Below, one piece after another: positions 47,988 to 58,830 of a stretch of DNA of 64,000 bases. This DNA comes from Dictyostelium discoideum (Eukaryota): contig CM000155.2 in assembly GCA_000004695.1 (NCBI GenBank), positions 3,520,001 to 3,584,000 on the forward strand. The letters are read 5' to 3'. The position numbers and the translations under genes were made by a program. Each line of letters opens with the position of its first letter. Positions within the stretch are counted from its first letter, which is position 1. The notes under the pieces are model-generated. The model did no database searches, had not been told where the DNA came from, and was given only the letters and a program-made list of their open reading frames with translations.

Positions 47988-48484
47988 TTAATTTAAAACT
48001 TTCATTATTTTGTGAATATTAATTTCTTCATCATCAATATCTTCATTGTTATCATTATCATTATCATTATCTTGTTGACCCCTATTTTTATGATTTTTTA
48101 TTTTATTTTGAAATTCTTTATTAATTGTTGATGTTAAATTGGTTATACCATATTTTAAAATTTTAATAATTTGATTCCTTTGATCTGCTGTTAATTTACT
48201 AATATTTAATAAATAAGAAAATAATAAATCAAAAAATTGAGTGATCAACTATATCACTTGAATTTTTTTTAAATTTTTCATAAATTACTATTTAAAAAAA
48301 AAAAATTTATTAATAAAAAACAAAATAAAATTAAATAAAGTAAAATAAAATAATTACAGTTTAAATTTGATAAAATTGTATTTTCATTTTGTGAATTTAC
48401 ATCTATTATCTTTTTAATGGAATATTTATCACTTGATGATAGTGATATATCTTCAAAATGTATTGGTATTTGAAATTCTAACAT
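47988..48484 (-). CDS. condensin CAP-D2 N-terminal exons (approximately 48278..48484 and 47988..48248); exact junctions unresolved
   Basis: MLEFQIPIHFEDISLSSSDKYSIKKIID resembles the NCAPD2 start (M..YEFHLPL...). ITQFFDLLFSYLLNISKLTADQRNQIIKIL resembles NCAPD2 QHFDTIYSILHHFR. A phase-0 donor GAT|GTAAAT and acceptor ATATAG|TTG are plausible for the first intron. The junction to the main exon near 47971..47990 needs a frame change I could not place on a plausible intron. Confidence 0.4.
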
Positions 48485-48642
48485 TTACATATACACTTTA
48501 TTGTGTTGGATTGAAATAATTGAAAAAAAAAAAAAAACTTTTTTTTCAAAAAAAAAAAAAAAAAAAAAAAACCAATGACAATGAAAAAAAAAAAAAATTT
48601 TTAATTAATTTTTGTAAATGGCGCGATTTGGTGTTTTGTTTT

Positions 48643-49777
48643 TTTTTTTAATTTGAAAAAATTTGCCGCCAAAATTTTAAATGAATAATTTAATATATTT
48701 TTAAAAATGGGGGTGTTTTGTTTTTGTTTTAAAATAAAAATAAAAGTTAAAAATAAAAATTAGAAAAAATCTTTTTTTTTTTATTTTTTATTTTTTTATT
48801 TTTATTTTTTTTTTTGGTATGGGTTGGTTTTTTGATTAAAAAAAAAAATGAAATATCTAAAAATATTAATAATTGTTACAATTTTTTTTTTATTAATATC
48901 ACAATTTGATCAACTCTATTGGGATATTGAATTGAATTCATTTAAAGATTTGGTGCAACTGATTCCGCTGTTCCTTGTTCAATGTTAATAGATTTATCAA
49001 TTTCTTTACAATCTGAAATTAAAAAATCAAAAAGTAAATCTATTAATATATTTTTTAGTGTTTTATCTTTATCCATCCATATTTTTTTTTTAATTATCCA
49101 ATTTGGATATCCATCTTTTATAAAATTTTATTCAATTTTTTTTTAAAGCTATTGTTGGTGCGAAATGAAAGATATTTTTGTTTTTTTTTGTGTGAAGGTA
49201 TTTAACAAATTTTTTAAAAAAAAAAAAAAAACAAAATAAAATAAAATAAAAAATAAAAAAAAAAATAATATAAAAAAAAAAATAAAAATTTGTGATAATA
49301 AAGATATTTTAAGGTTGGCCAATTATAGATTATTTTTAATTTTTCTATGCAATAAACCGAAATTGAGCTATTATTTAAACTGAAAAATTTTGAGAAAATG
49401 AAAATATAAGGGGTCCCAAAAAAAAAATAAAAAAAAGAGGCGAGAAACTCACCAATAATAATAATAATAATTTTAGAAAAATTCTGATTATATTTTTTGA
49501 TGGTGAAGAAGCATTTAAAGAATGGAGTGATACAGATTCATTATATGGTTCCAGACATTTAGCAAATTTATTATTGGATAAAAAAGTAATTACCAAAGAT
49601 AATGAGGATTTACCAATTAGTAGTAGCTTTTATAATACAGTTGAGGCTTTTATATCATTGGATTTATTGAGTACTCCAAATCCAAGATTTTATATGTTTA
49701 ATAAAAAAACTGAATCATTATTTAAAAAATTATCCAATATTGAAGATAAATTATCTTTAAAAAGATTGTAAGTGTTT

Positions 49778-49811
<34 letters not shown>

Positions 49812-50195
49812 CTAATTTTAATTTTCATATTTAAAAACAAAAAAAAAATAGTATAAGTCCAAAAGCAAATAAATACTTTCAAAATCATTTTATTGGTTCA
49901 GATATTCAATATGATCATATACCATTTTTAAACTATGTACCAACATTTATTATTCCTTACCCATTTCCAAATGTTTGGCACACTGAAAAAGATGATGAAC
50001 CTTATTTAGATAAAAATACAATCGAAGATTTATTAAAAATATTTGAAATATTTTTTGGTTCTTATTTGATATAAAAAAAATAAAAAATAAAAAACAAAGG
50101 AATAAAAAATAGTAAATACATGTGTTTAAATATGTTTGAATGTTTTTTTTTTTTTTATTATTTTTTTTTTTATAATTAACTAATTTTCAAACAGC
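48643..50195. repeat. segmental duplication copy A (about 1.55 kb) of the glutaminyl-cyclase locus
   Basis: Near-identical stretches shared with 51132..52862, for example TTGAAAAAATTTGCCGCCAAAATTTTAAA (48643 vs 51132) and exons 2 and 3 with their flanks. The copies are offset by about 2,489 bp. Confidence 0.75.
48848..50074 (+). pseudogene. glutaminyl-peptide cyclotransferase pseudogene (copy A): exon 1 with two internal deletions, 1-nt deletion at the exon-2 acceptor; exons 2 and 3 otherwise intact
   Basis: Copy A exon 1 (48848..~49050) keeps MKYLKILIIVTIFF...QFDQLYWDIEL.SFKD...TDSAVPCSMLIDL but lacks the equivalents of 51445..51647 and 51701..51878. At the exon-2 start, AAAAATTCTGATTAT replaces AAAAATTAATGATTAT, which is 1 nt shorter. 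Confidence 0.6.
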
Positions 50196-50762
50196 ACAAA
50201 CATTATTAATATCAATTTTAACTTCATCTAACATCTTATCTATAACATTTAAATGTTTTGGTAAAGAGCCTTTATATTGTTGTACTATAACCACAATATC
50301 ATTAATAGATGCCTCATCTTCACCATCATGTATTATAGTATTACGTTCATCTTTTAATTTTCTTATTTCCTCGAGATCTATTTGGTGGTTTGTTTTGGCA
50401 AACTCAACAAACTTTGAGTGTTTATTGAACTCGTGTTTGAATCTGTTCCATTTGAACAATTTTGCGGTCTGTTCTGTTTTGAATTTCGATTTGAGTTGGG
50501 GTAATAATATATTTCCAAGATAATAATTTGCCATTAATGAAGAACGTGCATATGCAATTAATTGTTTTTCTTCTTCTGTTTTAGGTTTATTTTTATCATA
50601 TAAATTATTTCTATAAAAAGGATTTCCTACTGTAAAAGCATTGATTTTGTCATGAAGTTTTTTCATCTCTTTGTCTCTTTCTTCTCCTTTAAACAATAAA
50701 TCAGATACTGATGATTTTAACCCATCTATTTGTGTTTTTAAATTGGTATTTTCGGTTGTCAT
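50187..50762 (-). CDS. hypothetical 191-aa protein (Lys/Glu-rich, coiled-coil N-terminus), single-copy gene between the two duplication copies
   Basis: Clean ORF with A/T-rich flanks. No recognisable domain. Confidence 0.4.
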   Translation of the reverse strand: MTTENTNLKTQIDGLKSSVSDLLFKGEERDKEMKKLHDKINAFTVGNPFYRNNLYDKNKPKTEEEKQLIAYARSSLMANYYLGNILLPQLKSKFKTEQTAKLFKWNRFKHEFNKHSKFVEFAKTNHQIDLEEIRKLKDERNTIIHDGEDEASINDIVVIVQQYKGSLPKHLNVIDKMLDEVKIDINNVCAV

Positions 50763-51397
50763 TTTGTGTATATAAAATTAGTGTGTGAAAAAAAAAAAAT
50801 AAAAAAAAAAAATAAAAAAAAATAATAAGAAAATCTAAAAAAAGTTACTTGTTTTTTTCTCAAAACTAATAAGAATTTATTTATTTTTTAACCTATTTTT
50901 GTAATAATTTTTCATACAAAAAATAAACTATAATTTTTTTTTTTTTACTTTTAGATAAATCTCACTGCCAATTAGGAACGTTCCAAATTCGAAAATGGGT
51001 TAGTTAATTTTAATGTTCATAAAAGGAAATTATAAAAATAAACTAAATTTAAAAATAATAAAATTTTTTTAAAATTAAACAACCAATTTTACACCCTGTT
51101 TTGTTATTTATTTTGAACTAAATTTTTTTTTTTTTTTTAAGTTGAAAAAATTTGCCGCCAAAATTTTAAAGAATAATTAAATATATTTTTAAAGATGGGG
51201 TGTTATGGTGTTTTTTTTTTTTGTTTTAAAATAAAAGTTAAATAAACAATTAAAAAAAATCTTTTTTTACTTTCTTTTTTTTTTTTTATTTTTTTTTTAT
51301 TTTTATTTTTTTTAATTTTTATTTTTTTTTTTTTTTTTATTTTTTAGTTTTTTTTTTTGGTTGGATTAGTTTTTGATTAAAAAAAAAAAAAAAAAAA

Positions 51398-52028
51398 ATG
51401 AAATATCTAAAAATATTAATAATTGTTACAATTTTTTTTTTTTTATTAATAAATGTGATTAATTGTATTGATAGAAAAGAGATAGTACAAAAAGAAGTGA
51501 AAATTAAATTTAAAAATTTAAAATCCACATTAATAAAGAAATATAGTGAATCAAATATGGAAAAAATTCAAAAACATTTAAAACATATATTGGTTGAAAG
51601 AGTTGCCGATACTCCAAACCATAAAAAAGTTAGAGAATATATAATATCACAATTTGATCAACTCTATTGGGATATTGAATTGGATTCATTTAAAGATAAT
51701 ACTCCATTTGGTGAGAAAACTTTTACAAATATAATTGTAACATCAAAATTTGTTAATGATGATGATGAAGATGATATTGACACAAAAGAAAGCAATGGTA
51801 ACATATCAAGTGAACCACCAAAAACATTAGTACTATCAGCTCACTATGATTCTAAATATTTTAAAGAATTTAAATTCTTTGGTGCAACTGATTCCGCTGT
51901 TCCTTGTTCAATGTTAATAGATTTAGCAATTTCTTTACAATCTGAAATTAAAAAATCAAAGAGTAAATATATTAATATATATTTTTTTAAAAAAAAAATA
52001 AAATAATAATTAAAAAAAAACTTTTTAC

Positions 52029-52104
<76 letters not shown>

Positions 52105-52408
52105 TTTAGAAAAATTAATGATTATATTTTTTGATGGTGAAGAAGCATTTAAAGAATGGAGTGACACAGATTCATTATATGGTTCCAGACATTTAGCAAA
52201 TTTATTATTGGATAAAAAAGTAATTACCAAAGATAATGAAGATTTACCAATTAGTAGTAGTTTTTATAATACAGTTGAGGCTTTTATATTATTGGATTTA
52301 TTGGGTACTCCAAATCCAAGATTTTATATGTTTAATAAAAAAACTGAATCATTATTTAAAAAATTATCTGATATTGAAGATAAATTATCTTTAAAAAGAT
52401 TGTAAGTG

Positions 52409-52476
<68 letters not shown>

Positions 52477-52734
52477 TATAATAATAATATTTAAAACAAA
52501 AAAAATAGTATAAGTCCAAAAGCAAATAAATACTTTCAAAATCATTTTATTGGTTCAGATATTCAAGATGATCATATACCATTTTTAAACTATGTACCAA
52601 CATTACATATTATTCCTTACCCATTTCCAAATGTTTGGCACACTGAAAAAGATGATGAATCTTGTTTAGATAAAAATACAATTGAAGATTTATCAAAAAT
52701 ATTTAAAATATTTGTTGGTTCTTATTTAATATAA
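51398..52734 (+). CDS. glutaminyl-peptide cyclotransferase (glutaminyl cyclase, M28-family fold), 3 exons: 51398..51962, 52110..52401, 52509..52734
   Basis: Signal peptide, then [30 protein letters not shown]...[10 protein letters not shown] and DDHIPFLNYVPTLHIIPYPFPNVWHTEKDDESCLDKNTIEDLSKIFKIFV, which align with human QPCT ([54 protein letters not shown]...NLNKILQVFV). Junctions are AAG A|GTAAAT...TTTTAG|AA (phase 1) and AGATT|GTAAGTG...AAAATAG|T (phase 2). All three exons are in frame. Confidence 0.8.
52031..52104. repeat. (ATA)n microsatellite (about 25 units) inside glutaminyl-cyclase intron 1
   Basis: Direct reading. Confidence 0.9.
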
Positions 52735-52787
52735 AATAAATAAAAAATTAAAAATTAAAAAAAGTAAATACATGTATTTAAATGTTG

Positions 52788-52824
<37 letters not shown>

Positions 52825-52843
52825 TTTTAATTTTATTTTATAA

Positions 52844-53197
52844 TTAACTAATTTTTAAACCATTTTCAATTTTTGAATCTGGTGATAATAAAATTACATC
52901 TCCTTCTTCTTTACCTAATGCACCTAATACTAAACATTCAGACATAAATTTTCTACCAATTTGTTTCTTTGGAAAATTTACAACGGCAACAATTTGACGA
53001 TTTACTAAATCTTCTTTATTATATCTCTTTGTAATTTGTGCCGAGGATTTACGAATTCCAATGGTTTCACCAAAATCAATGGTTAATTGGTAGGCAGGTT
53101 TTCTTGCTTCTGGGAAATCATCAACTTGGATTATTGTTCCAACTCTCATATCCACTCTTTCAAATTCCTCCCATTTTAAATCTCTTTTATCTTCCAT
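52844..53197 (-). CDS. tRNA-binding domain protein (CsaA/Trbp111/EMAP-II-like OB fold), 117 aa
   Basis: DMRVGTIIQVDDFPEARKPAYQLTIDFGE...RQIVAVVNFPKKQIGRKFMSECLVLGA fits the tRNA_bind (Myf) domain pattern (DLRVGKI...HP.A..LYV..VD.GE...QIVSG......G..V.VV.NL.P.K..G..S.GMLL). Confidence 0.65.
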   Translation of the reverse strand: MEDKRDLKWEEFERVDMRVGTIIQVDDFPEARKPAYQLTIDFGETIGIRKSSAQITKRYNKEDLVNRQIVAVVNFPKKQIGRKFMSECLVLGALGKEEGDVILLSPDSKIENGLKIS

Positions 53198-53519
53198 TGT
53201 TTTTTTTTTTTTTTTTTAAGTCTTTTTAAATTAAATGCCAAATTGGATTTTTAATTTTTAATTTTTTGTTTCGAAACTAAACAAAAAAAAAAATAAAAAT
53301 AAAAAAATAAAAATAAAAAAAAAAAATAAAAAAAAAAAATAAAAATAAAAAAAAAAAAAAAATAAATTAATATTCTGGAATAAGAAAATCTAAAAAAAGA
53401 TACTTGTTTTTTTCTCAAATTAACGAATTTTTTAAAAAATTTATAATATAAAACCTACTATTTTTCTAATAATTTTTACCTTTCATACCAAAAAAAAACA
53501 AACAATTTTAATTTATTTA

Positions 53520-54057
53520 TGAATATGATTAATGAGATCTCATTTTATTTAATTCTAAGGTAGAAAGTTTAAAGCATTATAATAAAAGTAAAGTGTTTAG
53601 TGTCGCTATGTATTACGTTACGTGTTTTTATTAAATTTGTTTTTAATGTTTAAGATTTTTGTCATCCTTCAAAAAATTAGCTTTAACTTAATTCGTTTTT
53701 TTTTTTTTTTGAATTGGATAACGCAATTATTAGTTGCTTCTCCTTGAGATGCTAGATCTCATTTTATTTTTATTTTTATTTTTTTTTTTTACAGGGTCTC
53801 TAAAAGAGGGGTTAGTTTACTTTTTTTTTTTTTTTATTATTTTTTTTTTTTTTTTTTTTTTTTCGAATTTTGAATTGTATTATTACTTTTGATTAAAATA
53901 TGTCCAAGGAGATTTTTGCTTTAACCCATCAATATGAGCAGTGTATATTACTTCCTACTCTTGATCTAGGTCCTCTATGTATTTACGAGCCCTCAGGGTA
54001 TCGGACCGTTGTCCTAGGGTGTGCAAGTCAATCTCTTAACCCTGCACTATCAGGGGC
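53520..54057. mobile_element. GC-richer, ORF-free repeat block ending about 48 bp upstream of tRNA-Phe; putative TRE5-type (tRNA-upstream) retroelement fragment
   Basis: GC is about 40-45% over 53880..54057, with internal direct repeats (AGATCTCATTTTATTT at 53535 and 53750) and poly-T runs. The distance from the block end to the tRNA (about 48 bp) matches the known TRE5 integration position. I cannot recognise the TRE5 module sequences themselves. Confidence 0.3.
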
Positions 54058-54105
54058 CCATTAACTTAATTCGTATTAAAGTGTTAAAAATATAAATTTC
54101 ACTAA

Positions 54106-54179
54106 GCCTTAGTAGCTCAGTTGGTATGAGCGTGAGACTGAAGATCTTAAGGTCGCTGGTTCGATCCCGGCCTGAGGCA
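54106..54179 (+). tRNA. tRNA-Phe (anticodon GAA)
   Basis: Cloverleaf: acceptor GCCTTAG/CTGAGGC (one G-U), D-arm GCTC-AGTTGGTAT-GAGC, anticodon stem TGAGA/TCTTA with loop CTGAAGA, variable AGGTC, T-arm GCTGG-TTCGATC-CCGGC, discriminator A. Confidence 0.85.
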
Positions 54180-54221: not shown

Positions 54222-54380
54222 TGATTAGGGATATAACAGTCACTGCAAAAATATAAAAAAGAAAAAGATTGAAAATTAATTCTTTCAATTTTTAAGACCC
54301 AAACTATTCCTTAAACAAATAATCAAATTAAGAAAATTAACCTACAAAGTCAGAATTAGTACTACCAAATATTATACTGT

Positions 54381-57300
54381 AATGGAATGTCAGAGGTTGG
54401 GGCACTGACACCTCCTTCAAAAACAAAACAGACTTTATCAAATCCCAATCCCCCCCAAACTCATTGGCACTAACCATAGTCAATGAACTCAACGCCGACG
54501 CAACACAAGCACACCAGCTATTCCCTGGCTCCATCATTAGCGCAACCAAAAGAGGCAACGGAATAGGAATACTAAACCACAACAACCAAAACATAAAACT
54601 CTCACCAATATTCATAATAGAAGGTAGACTAATAATATCAGACATTCTAATAAAAGATACCACAACGAGAATCTTGGCCATATACGCCCCGGCCCAACCT
54701 GATAAAAGAAAAACACTAGCTTCAACACTAAACAAACACTTCAACAACCAATACCACAACCTAACGTCTAACCCTAAAAAAAACATAGACATCATAGCAG
54801 GCGACTTCAACTGTTTAGACTTCAATGACAATCACACATCAAATGATGACCAAGGCAACTTGACAACACAATCCCCAGATGAGATGGCCACAGTAATCGA
54901 AGCCATCAGAATTTCAAATAACCTAATGGATATGGACCAACTAAATAAAAGACCCACCTTCTCAAGAACGATACACAACACAAACAATAACCTCACAAGA
55001 ATCTTGGAAAGGAGACTAGACAGAATATACCTTAACAATAGCATAATCAACTACAGCCAATTATACTTAAGGAACCTAATCCCCCCAAAAATTAACGACA
55101 TACCTCTATCAGATCACAACTTCCTATCAACCACTTTCACTCTACCCAACATACAGATGAACAAGCGCAGATGGAGATTAAAAAAATCCTCAATCCTCTC
55201 AAGCATAATGCTTAAGAAAATAGACTTCCTACTTAACGATTATTCAAGGGAGCTGTCATCCAACCATAACTCTATTTCCTTCTCTCAACTCAACAGCTTA
55301 CTAAACAAAATAAAACAACTATACACAGAATTTCAAAAACAAAACGACTACAACAATAAGGCAAACATCAAAAATCTAATCTCCCTACTAGAGACAGAAT
55401 TTAAAGACCAAGCCTTCGCAACCCTTTCAGCAATAAATGAATCTAAAAAAAGAGAAGAACAACTTAAACAAGAATTGAACAACTATTGCGAAGAAACCTC
55501 ACTCAAGTACATCTCCGCGAGAATCAAGAAAAGACACAATGATTTCACCATCAACGCAGTAAAAGATGCACAAGGTAGAACAATTAACAAACAGGAATTG
55601 ATCGAAGAAGAATACGTAAAATATTACTCAAATCTTTATGACTACAAAGAAGATGACCCACTATCTCATTACGAAATGTTGGAAAATTGGACAGTGACCA
55701 GGGACTCAACATGGGACAACCTTGAAAATGAATTCACCTCACAAGAAATCCTAGAAGTAATAAAACAACTGAACCCACACAAATCTCCAGGTCCAGATGG
55801 AATTCCAAACTTATTCTACATAACACACAAAGAAAAACTAGCTCCAATACTGGCCTCAGCATTCAACGACACTCTAAGAAATCCTCATCTAATTAGCAAA
55901 AATTACAAAGAAGGCCTCATTATCACGATACCTAAAAAGGGAGACCCCGAACTAATCAAAAACAGAAGACCAATTACACTGGCTAACTGTATATATAAAA
56001 TCCACTCAAAGCTAATAAACAATAGAATAATCCCAATACTAACGAAAGTGATCAACCACAATCAAAAAGGTTTCGTACCAGGCAGATTCATTCTAGATAA
56101 TATCATATCAATGAACGAATTAATCAACTATTGTAATGATAAAAGAATTAACGGAATAATTACACTATATGATTTCGAAAAAGCTTTTGACTCGATCTCA
56201 CACGGTTCAATACTTAGATCACTACAACACATCAACATTCCAACCAATATAATCAACCTGATAATGAATCTACTCACCAAATCTGAAGCAAGAATTGAAA
56301 TTAATGGTAGAACTACTATACCCTTTGAGATCAAAAGAGGAGTTAAACAAGGAGATCCACTATCACCCACCCTGTTCGTCCTTGTAATAGAGGCTTTAGC
56401 TAGAAAAATTTTACAAGATGACCGAATTACTGGCCTTCCTCTAAACAACAGCAACCACAGAGAGAAATTCCAAAGCTTTGCAGACGACTCGGCTTCAATG
56501 GTCCCAGACTCTCAACAACTTGAATTAGTACTACAACACTTCAATTCATTTTGCAAAGCCACTTCCTCAAAACTAAACATCGACAAATCTTCATCAATTC
56601 TTATAGGCAACCCAGACAATACCAACCAAAGAATTCCAATATCTACAAATCCAGAAAGATACTTGGGATACTTCTTCACAGGCAAAGGGATAACAAGAAA
56701 AATGCCAGAAATATTAAACACAATAAGATCATCCTTAGTACTATGGAAAACCACTGACTCAACAATCAAAACCAAAACCAACATCCTCAAAGCATTCGCA
56801 CTCTCTAAATTAACCTACTATTCATATGTAGAGAACTTTAAGGAAGAGGAATTAAACCAAATCAATAAATTAGTCGAATGGTTTTTATCGGCACCAAACA
56901 ACAAAAATGCTAGTGGATTTCAAGTTATTAATTTAATGAGAACCAAAAGAGCAAGATACCCACTAAAAGTAGGGGGCTGGAACATTTGGAATATAGAATT
57001 GAGACAACTGGCGCAGAAACTTTGGATCATAAACCAGTTCATCCTAGCACTAGAAACCAAACAAACAAACTCATCTCATCACAAAAGCTGGGAATATCAG
57101 ATCCAAAAAAACAAATTCACATCCAGATACCTAAAAGAAAACTTAGACGAATGGAACAAAATAAGAATAAAAAAAGCAATCTTCAACAATAATCTCACAT
57201 CCATAAAAAACGAAAATGGACAACCACTTTCACTGGCAGAATGGTATACCACAATTCAAGACCAAAATCCAACCATCCCTAAAACGGAATTCCAATCATC

Positions 57301-58179
57301 TCTAAACTTAAGAGGCTACAGCTATAATCAACTCTTCAACAACATACTGAAGATAAAAGACCCTAAAACAAGAGACACAATGTTTAGATTCCATGCCAGA
57401 TGCCTTCCAATAAACTACCTTCACAACAAACAATGCCCACTCTGCAAAGAAGATATGAGCAAAGACCCATACGGTCACCTGTTCTTCTCATGCAAGAAAA
57501 CAAAACAATTCATAAAAATAAATAAACTCAAAAATTTCATCTATATTACCACAGGCAAAGGTAAAAACTGGCATCATACAAGAATTAGGCAAAATAACAA
57601 TTTCATTAATAGAATAACTCCAAAATTATCACCGACAGCCAAAAAAGATCAAGAAGTGAATGCAGATTACGCCAACCACAGATTCCACAAAGAATACTTT
57701 GAATGGAACTATAAAGCAATAGACTATGATCTAACCAGATCATTCGCATATAGAAACCTAATGGCCCTTATCCTCCACAACATTTGGATTTGGATTTGCA
57801 ATCAAATATACAGTGAAGATCCTTTAACAAATGAATCACTATCATACAGCTCCCTTCTAAAGAAATGGCACAAATTGGCCACTCTAGAATACATCAAAAA
57901 AGCAAAAGATCTGAAAAACTTATCAGCAAAAGACCATAATAATTTCAAAGATCCTAAGATCCTTCTCACCTCAACGATCAAGCTAAGAAAAACAACAGCT
58001 AATTACTATTGTATTCCAGAATCATCTCTCCCAAATATTATATCTTTTGATCAATTCATATGATTAAAATAACCCTTCAGCTTAAATGATAAGCCTATAA
58101 ATAAATATTAAATAAAAACTCGTATTAACACAGATGGACATATATCAATCTTGTTAATCCAATATTAAAAAAAAAAAAA
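54381..58179 (+). mobile_element. TRE3-type (tRNA-3'-targeted) non-LTR retrotransposon, 5'-truncated copy lacking ORF1, with a 3' A13 tail
   Basis: Sits about 200 bp downstream of tRNA-Phe in the same orientation and contains an APE-RT-CCHC ORF2. It ends in an A13 run at 58167..58179. It is flanked by an exact 30-bp direct repeat CAGAATTAGTACTACCAAATATTATACTGT (54351..54380 and 58203..58232), plus a second 20-bp duplication ATATTATACTGTTGATTTAT (58179..58198 and 58221..58240). GC content is clearly above the surroundings. Confidence 0.6.
54464..58063 (+). CDS. retrotransposon ORF2: N-truncated apurinic-endonuclease domain, reverse transcriptase (F-ADD variant), C-terminal Cys-His zinc knuckle
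   Basis: The APE domain is missing its first motifs (it starts around ...RILAIYAP..., ...IAGDFNCL). RT motifs are PITLANCIYKIHSKLINNRI, FVPGRFILDNI, ITLYDFEKAFDSISHG, QGDPLSPTLFVLVIEALAR and SFADDSA. The C-terminal knuckle is CPLCKEDMSKDPYGHLFFSCKKT. The reading frame has no ATG; the track start is a TTG just after an in-frame TGA, consistent with 5' truncation. Confidence 0.8.
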   Translation: MALTIVNELNADATQAHQLFPGSIISATKRGNGIGILNHNNQNIKLSPIFIIEGRLIISDILIKDTTTRILAIYAPAQPDKRKTLASTLNKHFNNQYHNLTSNPKKNIDIIAGDFNCLDFNDNHTSNDDQGNLTTQSPDEMATVIEAIRISNNLMDMDQLNKRPTFSRTIHNTNNNLTRILERRLDRIYLNNSIINYSQLYLRNLIPPKINDIPLSDHNFLSTTFTLPNIQMNKRRWRLKKSSILSSIMLKKIDFLLNDYSRELSSNHNSISFSQLNSLLNKIKQLYTEFQKQNDYNNKANIKNLISLLETEFKDQAFATLSAINESKKREEQLKQELNNYCEETSLKYISARIKKRHNDFTINAVKDAQGRTINKQELIEEEYVKYYSNLYDYKEDDPLSHYEMLENWTVTRDSTWDNLENEFTSQEILEVIKQLNPHKSPGPDGIPNLFYITHKEKLAPILASAFNDTLRNPHLISKNYKEGLIITIPKKGDPELIKNRRPITLANCIYKIHSKLINNRIIPILTKVINHNQKGFVPGRFILDNIISMNELINYCNDKRINGIITLYDFEKAFDSISHGSILRSLQHINIPTNIINLIMNLLTKSEARIEINGRTTIPFEIKRGVKQGDPLSPTLFVLVIEALARKILQDDRITGLPLNNSNHREKFQSFADDSASMVPDSQQLELVLQHFNSFCKATSSKLNIDKSSSILIGNPDNTNQRIPISTNPERYLGYFFTGKGITRKMPEILNTIRSSLVLWKTTDSTIKTKTNILKAFALSKLTYYSYVENFKEEELNQINKLVEWFLSAPNNKNASGFQVINLMRTKRARYPLKVGGWNIWNIELRQLAQKLWIINQFILALETKQTNSSHHKSWEYQIQKNKFTSRYLKENLDEWNKIRIKKAIFNNNLTSIKNENGQPLSLAEWYTTIQDQNPTIPKTEFQSSLNLRGYSYNQLFNNILKIKDPKTRDTMFRFHARCLPINYLHNKQCPLCKEDMSKDPYGHLFFSCKKTKQFIKINKLKNFIYITTGKGKNWHHTRIRQNNNFINRITPKLSPTAKKDQEVNADYANHRFHKEYFEWNYKAIDYDLTRSFAYRNLMALILHNIWIWICNQIYSEDPLTNESLSYSSLLKKWHKLATLEYIKKAKDLKNLSAKDHNNFKDPKILLTSTIKLRKTTANYYCIPESSLPNIISFDQFI

Positions 58180-58280
58180 TATTATACTGTTGATTTATAC
58201 ACCAGAATTAGTACTACCAAATATTATACTGTTGATTTATTTATTAACTATCTTAATCTCAAAAAAATATTTACTCCACA

Positions 58281-58332
<52 letters not shown>

Positions 58333-58830
58333 TTAAATTCATTAAACCTAATAATTACTGTTTATTTCCTTAATGGATAAACATTGATTAATCATTATAA
58401 AAATAAAAAAATAAAAAAAACTACAAAAAAAAGGTAGGAAATCTAACATATTGCCATAATAAATTTGAAATTAATTTATCCCCAAATACTTTTTTATATA
58501 AATTATAAATGTCCTCCATTATAATTTAAAATGAATGATGATAAATAAAAAAAAATAAAATGTCTATTAATTATTTGTTTAAAGATTCGATAATATTATT
58601 TGATTAAAAAAAAAAAAATAAAAATATTTCATATGAAATTTACTTTTCTAAAAAAAAAAAAAAAAAAAAAAAAATATTTGTTTTCAAAAAAATTCTAAAA
58701 AAAAAAAGGTTATTTAGAATTGGATTTTTTTGGTTAATTTTAAATAAAATAATTATAAAAATTAATTTTAGGCGTCTCATTTAATAGGTTATTTATATAC
58801 TACAAGAATAAATTAAAATTTTATTGGTGA

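Follow-up and report, generated by a model that had tools for sequence, protein, structure and literature searches.

On chromosome 6 of Dictyostelium discoideum AX4, the glutaminyl cyclase (QC) locus is present as two tandem copies within the window studied, the whole stretch of 64,000 nt that was analysed. The downstream copy B encodes an intact predicted enzyme and the upstream copy A is, to judge from its lesions, a non-processed pseudogene without QC function. The history which we consider likely is an ancestral tandem duplication of QC together with its convergent neighbour, a tRNA-binding-domain gene (T), followed by replacement of one T paralog by an unrelated gene (X) and by lineage-specific loss of QC copies.

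The tandem duplication described in the initial annotation was confirmed by a blastn search of the window with this region, which gave matches far above chance between 49454-49811 and 52087-52446 (97.2%, E=3e-175), 49785-50176 and 52444-52822 (89.4%, E=2e-136), 48940-49056 and 51868-51986 (94.1%), and 48891-48949 and 51638-51697 (96.7%). Copies A (48634-50192) and B (51123-52860) are adjacent, paralogous and both on the + strand (Table 1). The spacing of about 2.49 kb given initially holds at the 5′ flank (2488 nt), but widens to 2634-2660 nt in exons 2-3 because sequence was lost from copy A. The 5′ flank (86%; 86.2% for 48634-48815 versus 51123-51304), intron 2 and the 3′ flank could all be aligned between the copies, and both intron positions were kept. 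The flanks had been called near-identical, but their identity was only 78-89%, with many indels. Since homology runs into introns and flanks, copy A is no retrocopy; a processed pseudogene was ruled out, as both introns and the promoter flank are kept. Local alignments of the filler between the two units to all candidate regions were no better than those of shuffled sequences.

Table 1. Positions of the features of the QC locus within the window.
Feature	Position	Strand	Remarks
Copy A 5′ flank	48634..48847	+	paralog of 51123-51397; 86% identity to B flank; also aligned globally
Copy A exon 1 remnant	48848..49033	+	186 nt versus 565 nt in copy B
Copy A intron 1	49034..49476	+	global alignment
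Copy A exon 2	49477..49767	+	291 nt; 96.9% identity to B exon 2
Copy A exon 3	49852..50074	+	223 nt; 3-nt deletion; 95.1% identity to B exon 3
Copy A 3′ flank	50075..50192	+	ends in shared 21-mer ATAATTAACTAATTTTCAAAC (50172-50192)
DDB_G0293954 (gene X)	50187..50762	-	191 aa; ORF between copies A and B
P_A, copy of the T upstream (promoter/5′UTR) region	50826..50925		upstream of gene X; aligned to 53379-53500
Junction filler between units A and B	50926..51122		~195 nt; without detectable homolog
Copy B 5′ flank (promoter region)	51123..51397	+	alignment to A flank
Copy B exon 1	51398..51962	+	565 nt; spliced ORF, protein identity
Copy B exon 2	52110..52401	+	spliced ORF
Copy B exon 3	52509..52734	+	spliced ORF; stop TAA 52732-52734
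Copy B 3′ flank	52735..52860	+	ends in ATAATTAACTAATTTTTAAAC (52840-52860)
DDB_G0293956 (T)	52844..53197	-	117-aa tRNA-binding-domain protein; ancestral downstream neighbour of QC
P_B, T upstream region	53379..53500		paralog of P_A, by alignment

Copy B had correctly been recognised as an intact three-exon gene. Its spliced ORF encodes 360 aa, and the product is identical to Q54B14/XP_628902, the glutaminyl-peptide cyclotransferase of D. discoideum AX4. The protein matched Pfam Peptidase_M28 (PF04389) with 111 bits, and its best PDB matches (4mhn, 7d1h, 4fai and 2afm; E ~1e-61 to 1e-64) were all glutaminyl cyclases. All conserved catalytic and zinc-binding QC motifs were present and aligned identically to 4mhn; by reference to human QC, we take residues of these motifs to be the Zn ligands. 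By sequence membership, copy B is an animal-type (M28-fold) glutaminyl cyclase, and this predicted enzyme would be the source of QC activity in AX4. A literature search yielded no study of Dictyostelium QC.

Global alignment of copy A with copy B verified the two internal losses from exon 1 and the loss of 1 nt where exon 2 begins, all of which had been reported initially. The exon-1 loss of 198 nt, which includes a T-run difference, is in frame, and that of 181 nt results in a frameshift; the 1-nt deletion is located after AAAAATT. Read from its own ATG (48848), copy A is open for 46 codons before a stop, and the frame of exon 2 does not match that of exon 1, which upholds the pseudogenisation proposed for the upstream copy. 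Intron 1 contains an insert of ~330-400 nt (49052-49453) that was without counterpart in copy B or the other fetched loci; blastn with this insert gave low-complexity matches only. Exons 2 and 3 were less well preserved than the almost perfect state first ascribed to them (identities in Table 1), with the 3-nt deletion in exon 3 and 10 non-synonymous differences from copy B, among them a D to Y change in the conserved DDH motif and changes turning LLDLLG into SLDLLS. For exons 2 and 3, pN was 0.024 between A and B versus 0.005 between functional pairs, all from small counts, and pN/pS was 0.38 versus 0.04-0.15, where 16 differences underlie the A-B ratio, to which the constrained B lineage contributes. 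In exon 3, many sites differed between the AX4 and wild-strain A copies at which the B copies were identical. Copy A is under relaxed selective constraint.

The comparison of copy number among strains and species that the initial annotation had proposed revealed the two-unit structure (L002) or derivatives of it (L001, L003, L008 and L009) in five assemblies and a single copy in the outgroups; the structures, the disabling mutations and the presence or absence of each element are observed facts. L002, assembled independently to chromosome scale from an AX4-like strain, was colinear with 48400-53600 and showed homopolymer-length differences and 2 substitutions only. In the wild D. discoideum strains L001 and L003, copy B was intact and copy A carried both exon-1 deletion junctions as in AX4. 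In these two strains, a private 725-nt deletion at an AATT microhomology fused exon 1 with the last part of exon 2; most of exon 2 was gone, including the FFDGEE motif, and exon 3 had a 1-nt deletion. Both 'D. cf. discoideum' assemblies, L008 and L009, had a condensin-side QC gene intact in all three exons. This gene was followed in L009 by a ~40-nt T remnant, X, a QC_B remnant and T, and in L008 by a ~55-nt T remnant, a degraded X, a 2.2-kb element and T. The QC_B remnant of L009 comprised ~150 nt of intron 2 and exon 3 pieces, plus 3′ flank, with internal deletions; in L008, QC_B was undetectable. D. citrinum, D. dimigraforme and D. firmibasis had one QC gene in the order condensin-QC-T, without duplication. 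The 3′ flank paired the intact copy of L009 with copy A of D. discoideum sensu stricto (AX4 and the two wild strains) and the L009 remnant with copy B, an orthology argument that draws on three characters only, in A/T-rich sequence. As L009 has an intact copy A and just the short remnant of B, QC decay looks reciprocal between the sibling lineages.

The duplication had been suggested to be young. Synonymous divergence (pS) was 0.064 for A versus B; the corresponding values were 0.031 for comparisons of strains and 0.24 for those with D. citrinum. The A-B value is thus about twice that between strains, and the duplication is probably older than the separation of the five assemblies of the complex that were examined, indicating that it is not especially young. 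At synonymous sites, copy A of AX4 differed less from copy B of AX4 (0.064) than from the L009 copy in the orthologous position (0.107), a comparison of 6 versus 10 differences and hence of small counts. At one exon-3 site, copies A and B of sensu stricto both have G (GGTTCAGA), and the cf. discoideum copies, D. dimigraforme and D. firmibasis have A. Given these two observations, a single origin would need gene conversion; otherwise, independent duplications would have to be assumed.

The minus-strand neighbours suggest that the duplicated unit extended beyond QC. The unrelated 191-aa gene noted between the copies does lie there, but instead of having been retained it is better read as replacing the tRNA-binding gene of unit A. 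Gene X encodes a coiled-coil N-terminus and a conserved C-terminal region of ~130 aa, and belongs to a small family with homologs in dictyostelids only. Its wild-strain alleles encode 279 and 304 aa, and the D. firmibasis homolog shares a chromosome record with the QC gene but is ~3.5 Mb away from it. T adjoins QC in D. citrinum, D. dimigraforme and D. firmibasis. The 3′ boundary of the repeat had been placed exactly at the stop codons of both genes. Both stops, TCA of gene X (50187-50189) and TTA of T (52844-52846), do lie in the shared 21-mer, but they are 11 nt apart within it, so that the repeat takes in the stop of T and the four sense codons preceding it. A secondary deletion at the microhomology of the TAATTTT..AAAC repeat best accounts for this coincidence of stop codons. 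Homology between P_A and P_B was found beyond both minus-strand genes, with a core of 41/42 identical positions and a local-alignment z of 19 versus shuffles; a 38-mer occurred at just these two sites within the window. The P_B motif is kept in D. citrinum and L009, and the divergence between P_A and P_B was indel-rich and as high as in other non-coding parts of the repeat. The duplicated unit therefore probably held T and the T promoter as well, and we infer that T_A was replaced by gene X, which in AX4 would be transcribed from a T-derived promoter copy. P_A was seen in AX4 and L002 only and was not detected in L001, L003, L008 or L009. An ancestral P_A would accordingly need several independent losses, and P_A may instead be a later copy event in the AX4 lineage.

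The course of events that we infer would have begun once the lineage leading to the D. discoideum species complex had parted from D. citrinum: in the common ancestor of the complex, a segment of ~2.4 kb comprising QC with ~250 nt of promoter, convergent T and ~300 nt of T upstream region would have been tandemly duplicated. Unit A, on the condensin side, would then have had almost its entire T coding sequence swapped, in the same orientation, for a copy of gene X. With two QC genes at hand, one would have been dispensable. In sensu stricto, QC_A would have decayed, the two exon-1 deletions preceding strain divergence and later lesions being lineage-specific (in AX4, the deletions of 1 and 3 nt together with missense changes; in the wild strains, the 725-nt deletion). 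In the cf. discoideum lineages, QC_A would have been kept intact, and QC_B cut to a short remnant in L009, with none detected in L008. A further sensu stricto deletion between the two TAATTTT..AAAC copies may have removed the last T_A remnant, bringing the stop codon of X against the QC_A 3′ flank and creating the apparent two-stop boundary. The pairing of 3′-flank characters, the common T_A remnants and gene X, and the QC_B remnant of L009 speak for one shared ancestral duplication; the exon-3 site and the pS values speak against it. For the combined proposition, that one QC+T duplication was resolved in opposite directions and that the T paralog was overwritten by a relocated gene X standing behind a T promoter copy in AX4, we see an even chance.

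Extensively A/T-rich, homopolymer-filled intergenic DNA is error-prone in assembly, and a mis-assembled or collapsed repeat of what is in reality a single QC gene was weighed, as the initial annotation had done. This is barely conceivable: the copies are distinct, with 3-5% exon substitutions, different introns and large private indels, the independent L002 assembly is colinear over the whole region, and two wild and two cf. discoideum strains hold derivatives of the two-unit structure. Collapse was rejected because the copies have diverged, L002 is colinear and the exon-1 junctions are shared by L001 and L003. It is also very improbable that copy A is alive through alternative splicing or an internal ATG, yielding a truncated but working protein of the M28 fold. 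For the AX4-like assembly, automated annotation did call a 200-aa product (P0022) with a Peptidase_M28 Pfam score of 54 bits, exon 2 and exon 3 each have a separately open frame, and pN/pS (0.38) is below 1. However, P0022, the sole gene model that the annotator could build for copy A, begins past the HYDS and GATDS motifs. It lacks the signal/anchor and ~150 N-terminal residues, including HYDS and the Asp of GATDSAVPC, which presumably corresponds to the zinc-ligand Asp of human QC with which it aligns (Zn ligands D159/E202/H330). It also needs a non-homologous acceptor within intron 1, and it carries the DDH change and both LLDLLG changes. The exon-2 and exon-3 deletions of the wild strains further indicate that copy A is not conserved as a gene.

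A two-step or independent origin is unlikely. Gene X would first have entered the QC-T interval, accompanied by a local duplication of ~430 nt that reached from QC intron 2 to the 3′ end of T, as in the state of L009, and the full second QC copy and the T-promoter copy would have arisen later, in sensu stricto only. The downstream remnant of L009 does have its start in intron 2, and little of T remains upstream, which has the look of a flanking duplication; the derived exon-3 site common to both sensu stricto copies, the synonymous proximity of AX4_A to AX4_B rather than to L009, and the restriction of P_A to the AX4 lineage also fit. Simple recombination between short repeats, however, cannot rebuild an intact QC gene and promoter downstream of X, and the 3′-flank characters unite the A copies of the different lineages, and likewise the B copies. 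Moreover, the internal deletions of the L009 remnant are those expected of a decayed full copy, and P_A and P_B have diverged as much as the remaining repeat.

The QC locus resembles a tandem-duplication non-processed pseudogene in its same-orientation copies, in homology over promoter, introns and 3′ flank, and in a copy A with frameshifts, internal deletions and a missense excess beside a copy B under purifying selection. Unlike the typical case, the unit seemingly held two genes, the second of which was replaced in one unit by an unrelated gene, and different lineages lost different copies. Reciprocal loss of duplicates is known from post-WGD yeasts, and divergent resolution, or reciprocal gene loss after duplication, was reportedly modelled by Lynch and Force. 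Retention of B with a dead A in sensu stricto, and of A with a remnant or absent B in cf. discoideum, is similar, the single origin being drawn from few characters. The QC copies are tandem and only 2.5 kb apart, however, so that reciprocal loss moves no gene to another chromosome, and the hybrid incompatibility from which the model draws its interest is not expected. Replication-based rearrangements of the FoSTeS/MMBIR type produce complex tandem duplications with non-local junction sequence. The foreign material between the QC units (gene X and the ~195-nt filler) and the short microhomologies at secondary deletion junctions (AATT and TAATTTT..AAAC) are reminiscent of these, but the original junctions are too decayed for templated-insertion signatures, and one-step and multi-step origins would look alike. 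Laboratory stocks of D. discoideum have large recent duplications, such as that of chromosome 2 in AX3/AX4, which span tens to hundreds of kb and are near identical and strain-specific. The QC repeat is likewise segmental and in the same species, but comprises 2.4 kb, has a pS of 0.064 and is common to wild isolates and sibling lineages.

The QC duplication and pseudogene are an ordinary kind of event with a modest twist, the retention of opposite copies in close lineages; they represent no new kind of system and open no long-standing question. The locus is a compact and well-preserved stage series of duplicate decay across close Dictyostelium lineages, with shared early and lineage-specific later lesions, apparent reciprocal retention and a paralog replaced by a relocated gene. 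It may serve as a handy marker for relationships inside the D. discoideum complex and, on a small scale, for testing gene conversion against independent decay in tandemly duplicated genes. If the combined proposition is true, gene X would be a natural example of promoter capture by a relocated gene within a decaying duplicate. In annotation, copy A should be handled as a pseudogene; in a new assembly it was called by an automated pipeline as an M28 protein of 200 aa. The TTGCCGCCAAAATTT motif was found in the flanks of both copy A (48663-48677) and copy B (51152-51166) and all aligned species have kept it upstream of QC. The D. discoideum intergenic DNA in the window was extremely A/T-rich, with many homopolymers.

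When the region was compared with the whole window by blastn, the two-copy repeat proved to be real. Identity between copy A, the condensin-side glutaminyl cyclase (QC) duplicate, and copy B, the downstream duplicate, was 97.2% across the 360 nt that include exon 2 and its surroundings (E=3e-175) and 89.4% across the 396 nt from intron 2 through exon 3 into the 3′ flank. Two exon-1 fragments of copy A matched copy B with 94-97% identity, and the 5′ flanks of the copies were 86% identical. The initial annotation had allowed for an assembly artefact instead of a duplication. A look-up with the exact 117-aa protein of the adjacent minus-strand gene led to three further D. discoideum assemblies (L001, L002 and L003). 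In the AX4-like L002, a 3.6-Mb contig shares even the retrotransposon insertion and follows the window colinearly for 20 kb; homopolymer lengths and two substitutions were the sole differences from window positions 48400-53600. L002 therefore reproduces the two-unit structure in an independently built assembly, and the repeat is not an artefact. The locus reflects a real tandem duplication at the DNA level, of which the upstream copy is decaying; in kind it is ordinary, a duplicated pseudogene.

Positions of features at the QC locus (window coordinates unless another assembly is named; rc, reverse-complemented)
Feature	Position	Strand	Remark
Copy A	48634-50192		global alignment
Conserved upstream motif, copy A	48663-48677		
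Copy A start codon	48848		homologous ATG
Extra sequence in copy A intron 1	49052-49453		
Gene X (DDB_G0293954)	50187-50762	-	
Gene X stop codon	50187-50189	-	
Gene X allele, L001 rc	6791-7630		
Gene X allele, L003 rc	7249-8163		
Resumed homology, unit A	50826-50925		
Unit-junction filler	50926-51122		~195 nt
Insertion in X-QC_B spacer, L001 rc	7790-8290		
Copy B	51123-52860		global alignment
Conserved upstream motif, copy B	51152-51166		
Copy B exons	51398-51962 / 52110-52401 / 52509-52734	+	splicing
(AAT)n microsatellite	52030-52104		
Gene T (DDB_G0293956)	52844-53197	-	
Gene T stop codon	52844-52846	-	
Resumed homology, unit B	53379-53500		upstream of T
T promoter to tRNA-Phe	53459-54069		
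G+C-richer stretch	~53900-54075		
tRNA-Phe(GAA)	54106-54179		
Non-LTR retrotransposon	54228-58696		
Retrotransposon ORF	54464-58063		
2.2-kb insertion, L008	12010-14230		

Spliced copy B encodes a 360-aa protein that exactly matched the D. discoideum AX4 protein Q54B14/XP_628902, a glutaminyl-peptide cyclotransferase. A Peptidase_M28 domain is present in the product, its best solved relatives were all glutaminyl cyclases (E ~1e-61 to 1e-64) with the conserved motifs, including VWHT, aligned, and the gene is under strong purifying selection across species (pN/pS 0.04-0.15). Exact matches to AX4 proteins were likewise obtained for the 191-aa and 117-aa minus-strand ORFs, which are DDB_G0293954 (gene X) and DDB_G0293956 (gene T), the latter coding for a tRNA-binding-domain protein. 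The record bearing all three, of 3,602,379 bp, is presumably chromosome 6. Upstream of the locus lies a large multi-exon minus-strand gene, whose counterpart in the AX4-like assembly has Cnd1 condensin domains. The gene models produced automatically for the functional QC begin at an internal Met and measure 307 aa in L002 and 309 aa in L009 (an assembly labelled 'D. cf. discoideum'), although the ORF is uninterrupted from the upstream ATG onwards. An (AAT)n microsatellite of ~25 units takes up most of the first intron in copy B, and only ~6 units are found at this position in copy A. The motif TTGCCGCCAAAATTT(T/C)AAAGAA, conspicuous amid otherwise A/T-only intergenic DNA, precedes the QC start codon by ~185-250 nt, is conserved in all aligned species (also L003, L005, L007, L008 and L009) and is kept in both copies. 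It is a candidate promoter element, in single-copy species common to the divergent condensin gene.

Exon 1 of copy A measures 186 nt, compared with 565 nt in copy B. Global alignment confirmed the two losses reported for this exon, one totalling 198 nt and in frame, the other of 181 nt and frame-shifting, so that the ORF ends after 46 codons. The 1-nt deletion noted earlier in exon 2 was also present, at 49484, leaving exon 2 out of frame with exon 1, and exon 3 carries a 3-nt deletion at 49948. Exons 2 and 3 had been regarded as almost perfect; their identity to those of copy B was in fact 96.9% and 95.1%, respectively. Of the differences, 10 are non-synonymous; among these, D->Y falls in the conserved DDH motif, and LLDLLG is altered at two positions. 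The extra ~330-400 nt in intron 1 were without counterpart in anything searched; a blastn comparison with the window and every fetched locus returned nothing beyond low-complexity matches, and the insert contains no ORF. A 200-aa 'M28' protein called from copy A in L002 (P0022) begins at a Met located past the GATDS motif, and its splice acceptor, within intron 1, is non-homologous; such a product cannot represent a whole QC.

In AX4, homology between the two units resumed past both minus-strand genes, with 41 of 42 positions identical in the core and a local alignment score 19 SD above that of shuffles. The 38-mer core occurs in the window at these two sites only and once each, upstream of T, in D. 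citrinum and L009. Together with remnants of the T 3′ end just past QC_A in L008 and L009 (both 'D. cf. discoideum'), this indicates that the duplicated unit comprised QC, T and the T promoter, ~2.4 kb in all, and that the T coding sequence of unit A was replaced by X in the same orientation. The promoter copy upstream of X was detectable in AX4 and L002 only and was not found in L001, L003, L008 or L009, where over-permissive blastn yielded only A/T-rich noise. Since, in addition, the spacer upstream of X is completely different among lineages, the replacement of T by X is a step that we infer. Local alignments of the unit-junction filler to the regions downstream of the T promoter at eight loci did not score above shuffles. 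In L001 the spacer between X and QC_B contains an insertion of ~500-560 nt, absent in L003 and AX4, with repeated ATTAATATGG/CCATATTAAT-type motifs, which may be a small mobile element.

The 3′ boundary of the duplication had been placed exactly at the stop codons of both minus-strand genes. These positions do not coincide and lie 11 nt apart within a shared 21-mer, ATAATTAACTAATTTT(C/T)AAAC. The T stop codon is found inside the 21-mer because the T 3′ end belonged to the unit. In L008 and L009, the 3′ end of X has a similar motif, (T/A)AATTTTAAA(C/A)A, ~100-130 nt past the remnant of T_A (the T copy of unit A), and in AX4, L001 and L003 the stretch between the two types of motif is missing. 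A deletion between these short direct repeats would have placed the X stop codon within the 21-mer.

L001 and L003, two wild strains whose flanking gene has ~96% identity with that of AX4, showed both exon-1 deletion junctions of copy A exactly as in AX4, indicating that the first lesions are older than the divergence of these strains. L001 and L003 also have a private deletion, with an AATT microhomology at its junction, that leaves only the last 40 nt of exon 2, fused to exon 1; their exon 3 has additional private lesions. A single QC gene, arranged as condensin(-) / QC(+) / T(-), is present in D. citrinum, D. dimigraforme and D. firmibasis, and all three lack gene X at this locus. Synonymous differences in exons 2 and 3 (pS) were 0.064 between AX4 A and AX4 B, 0.031 between AX4 B and wild-strain B, 0.063-0.074 between AX4 B and the cf. 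discoideum copies and 0.24 between AX4 B and D. citrinum. These values, small in counts, and the species distribution indicate that the duplication postdates the D. citrinum split and predates diversification of the complex; distance alone was rejected as a decisive means of dating because of the small synonymous counts. The duplication with its decaying upstream copy was seen correctly at the outset, while its supposed youth was not upheld, the event being older and structurally richer.

The opposite fate was observed in L008 and L009, in which the condensin-adjacent QC (position A) is intact with all three exons. In L009 it is followed by ~40 nt of the T 3′ end, X, a second-QC remnant (the end of intron 2, exon 3 pieces and the 3′ flank) and intact T; in L008, by ~55 nt of the T 3′ end, a degraded X lacking an internal segment, a 2.2-kb element and T. 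Three 3′-flank characters link the intact L009 copy to copy A of the sensu stricto strains (AX4, L001 and L003) and the L009 remnant to their copy B, and this sequence pattern favours one ancestral duplication followed by reciprocal decay. Against this, copies A and B of the sensu stricto strains have one derived exon-3 site in common, and at synonymous sites AX4_A resembles AX4_B more closely than it does the L009 copy; these observations suggest a degree of gene conversion or, with lower probability, separate events. The locus is of modest evolutionary interest for the apparent reciprocal retention between sibling lineages and for the probable replacement of a redundant tRNA-binding paralog by a relocated gene. 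The 2.2-kb insertion in L008 has ~35-nt inverted-repeat ends (TTGTTGATAAATTTCAAAACTGACCGATTTTTTT... / ...AAAAAAATTGGTCAGTTTTGAAATTTATTAACAA), carries a 264-aa intron-containing gene model and occupies the expected second-QC site; it may be a DNA transposon.

The product of gene X is coiled-coil at its N-terminus, and a stretch of ~130 aa in its C-terminal part is conserved. This conserved stretch matched no Pfam family, and the long allele gave only sub-threshold coiled-coil matches. An exhaustive HMMER search revealed relatives in dictyostelids only, namely D. firmibasis (two), Polysphondylium violaceum, Tieghemostelium lacteum and the C-terminus of a D. purpureum protein, which indicates that X belongs to an old family restricted to this lineage and did not arise de novo. 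In D. firmibasis, one of the homologs is located on the chromosome record that also bears the QC gene, ~3.5 Mb away from it, consistent with X having moved into the QC locus in the ancestor of the D. discoideum complex. Retroposition was considered on account of an intron annotated in the D. firmibasis homolog; this 'intron' coincides with a frameshift. Compared with the D. discoideum gene, the homolog is frameshifted twice, the second time near the 3′ end; it is either a pseudogene or affected by homopolymer errors and speaks neither for nor against retroposition. X is strongly length-polymorphic (191 aa in AX4, the shortest, and 279 and 304 aa in wild strains) through in-frame gains and losses within the coiled-coil repeats. 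An AlphaFold2 model from an 8-sequence alignment was all-helical (pLDDT 46, pTM 0.27) and too poor for a fold search. A literature search returned no mention of DDB_G0293954, neighbouring gene IDs or the locus, and neither a Dictyostelium glutaminyl cyclase study nor a report of the new Dictyostelium assemblies.

A ~4.5-kb non-LTR retrotransposon lies 48 nt downstream of the tRNA-Phe(GAA) gene; its 1199-aa ORF is annotated as RVT_1 in L002. AX4 and L002 carry this insertion and the wild strains L001 and L003 lack it, and it looks like a polymorphic tRNA-gene-targeted (TRE-type) element, a known Dictyostelium feature. The interval from the T promoter to tRNA-Phe is ~460 nt longer than in the wild strains, and a G+C-richer stretch ends ~30 nt upstream of the tRNA gene; the extra sequence may be a fragment of an upstream-targeting TRE5-type element.
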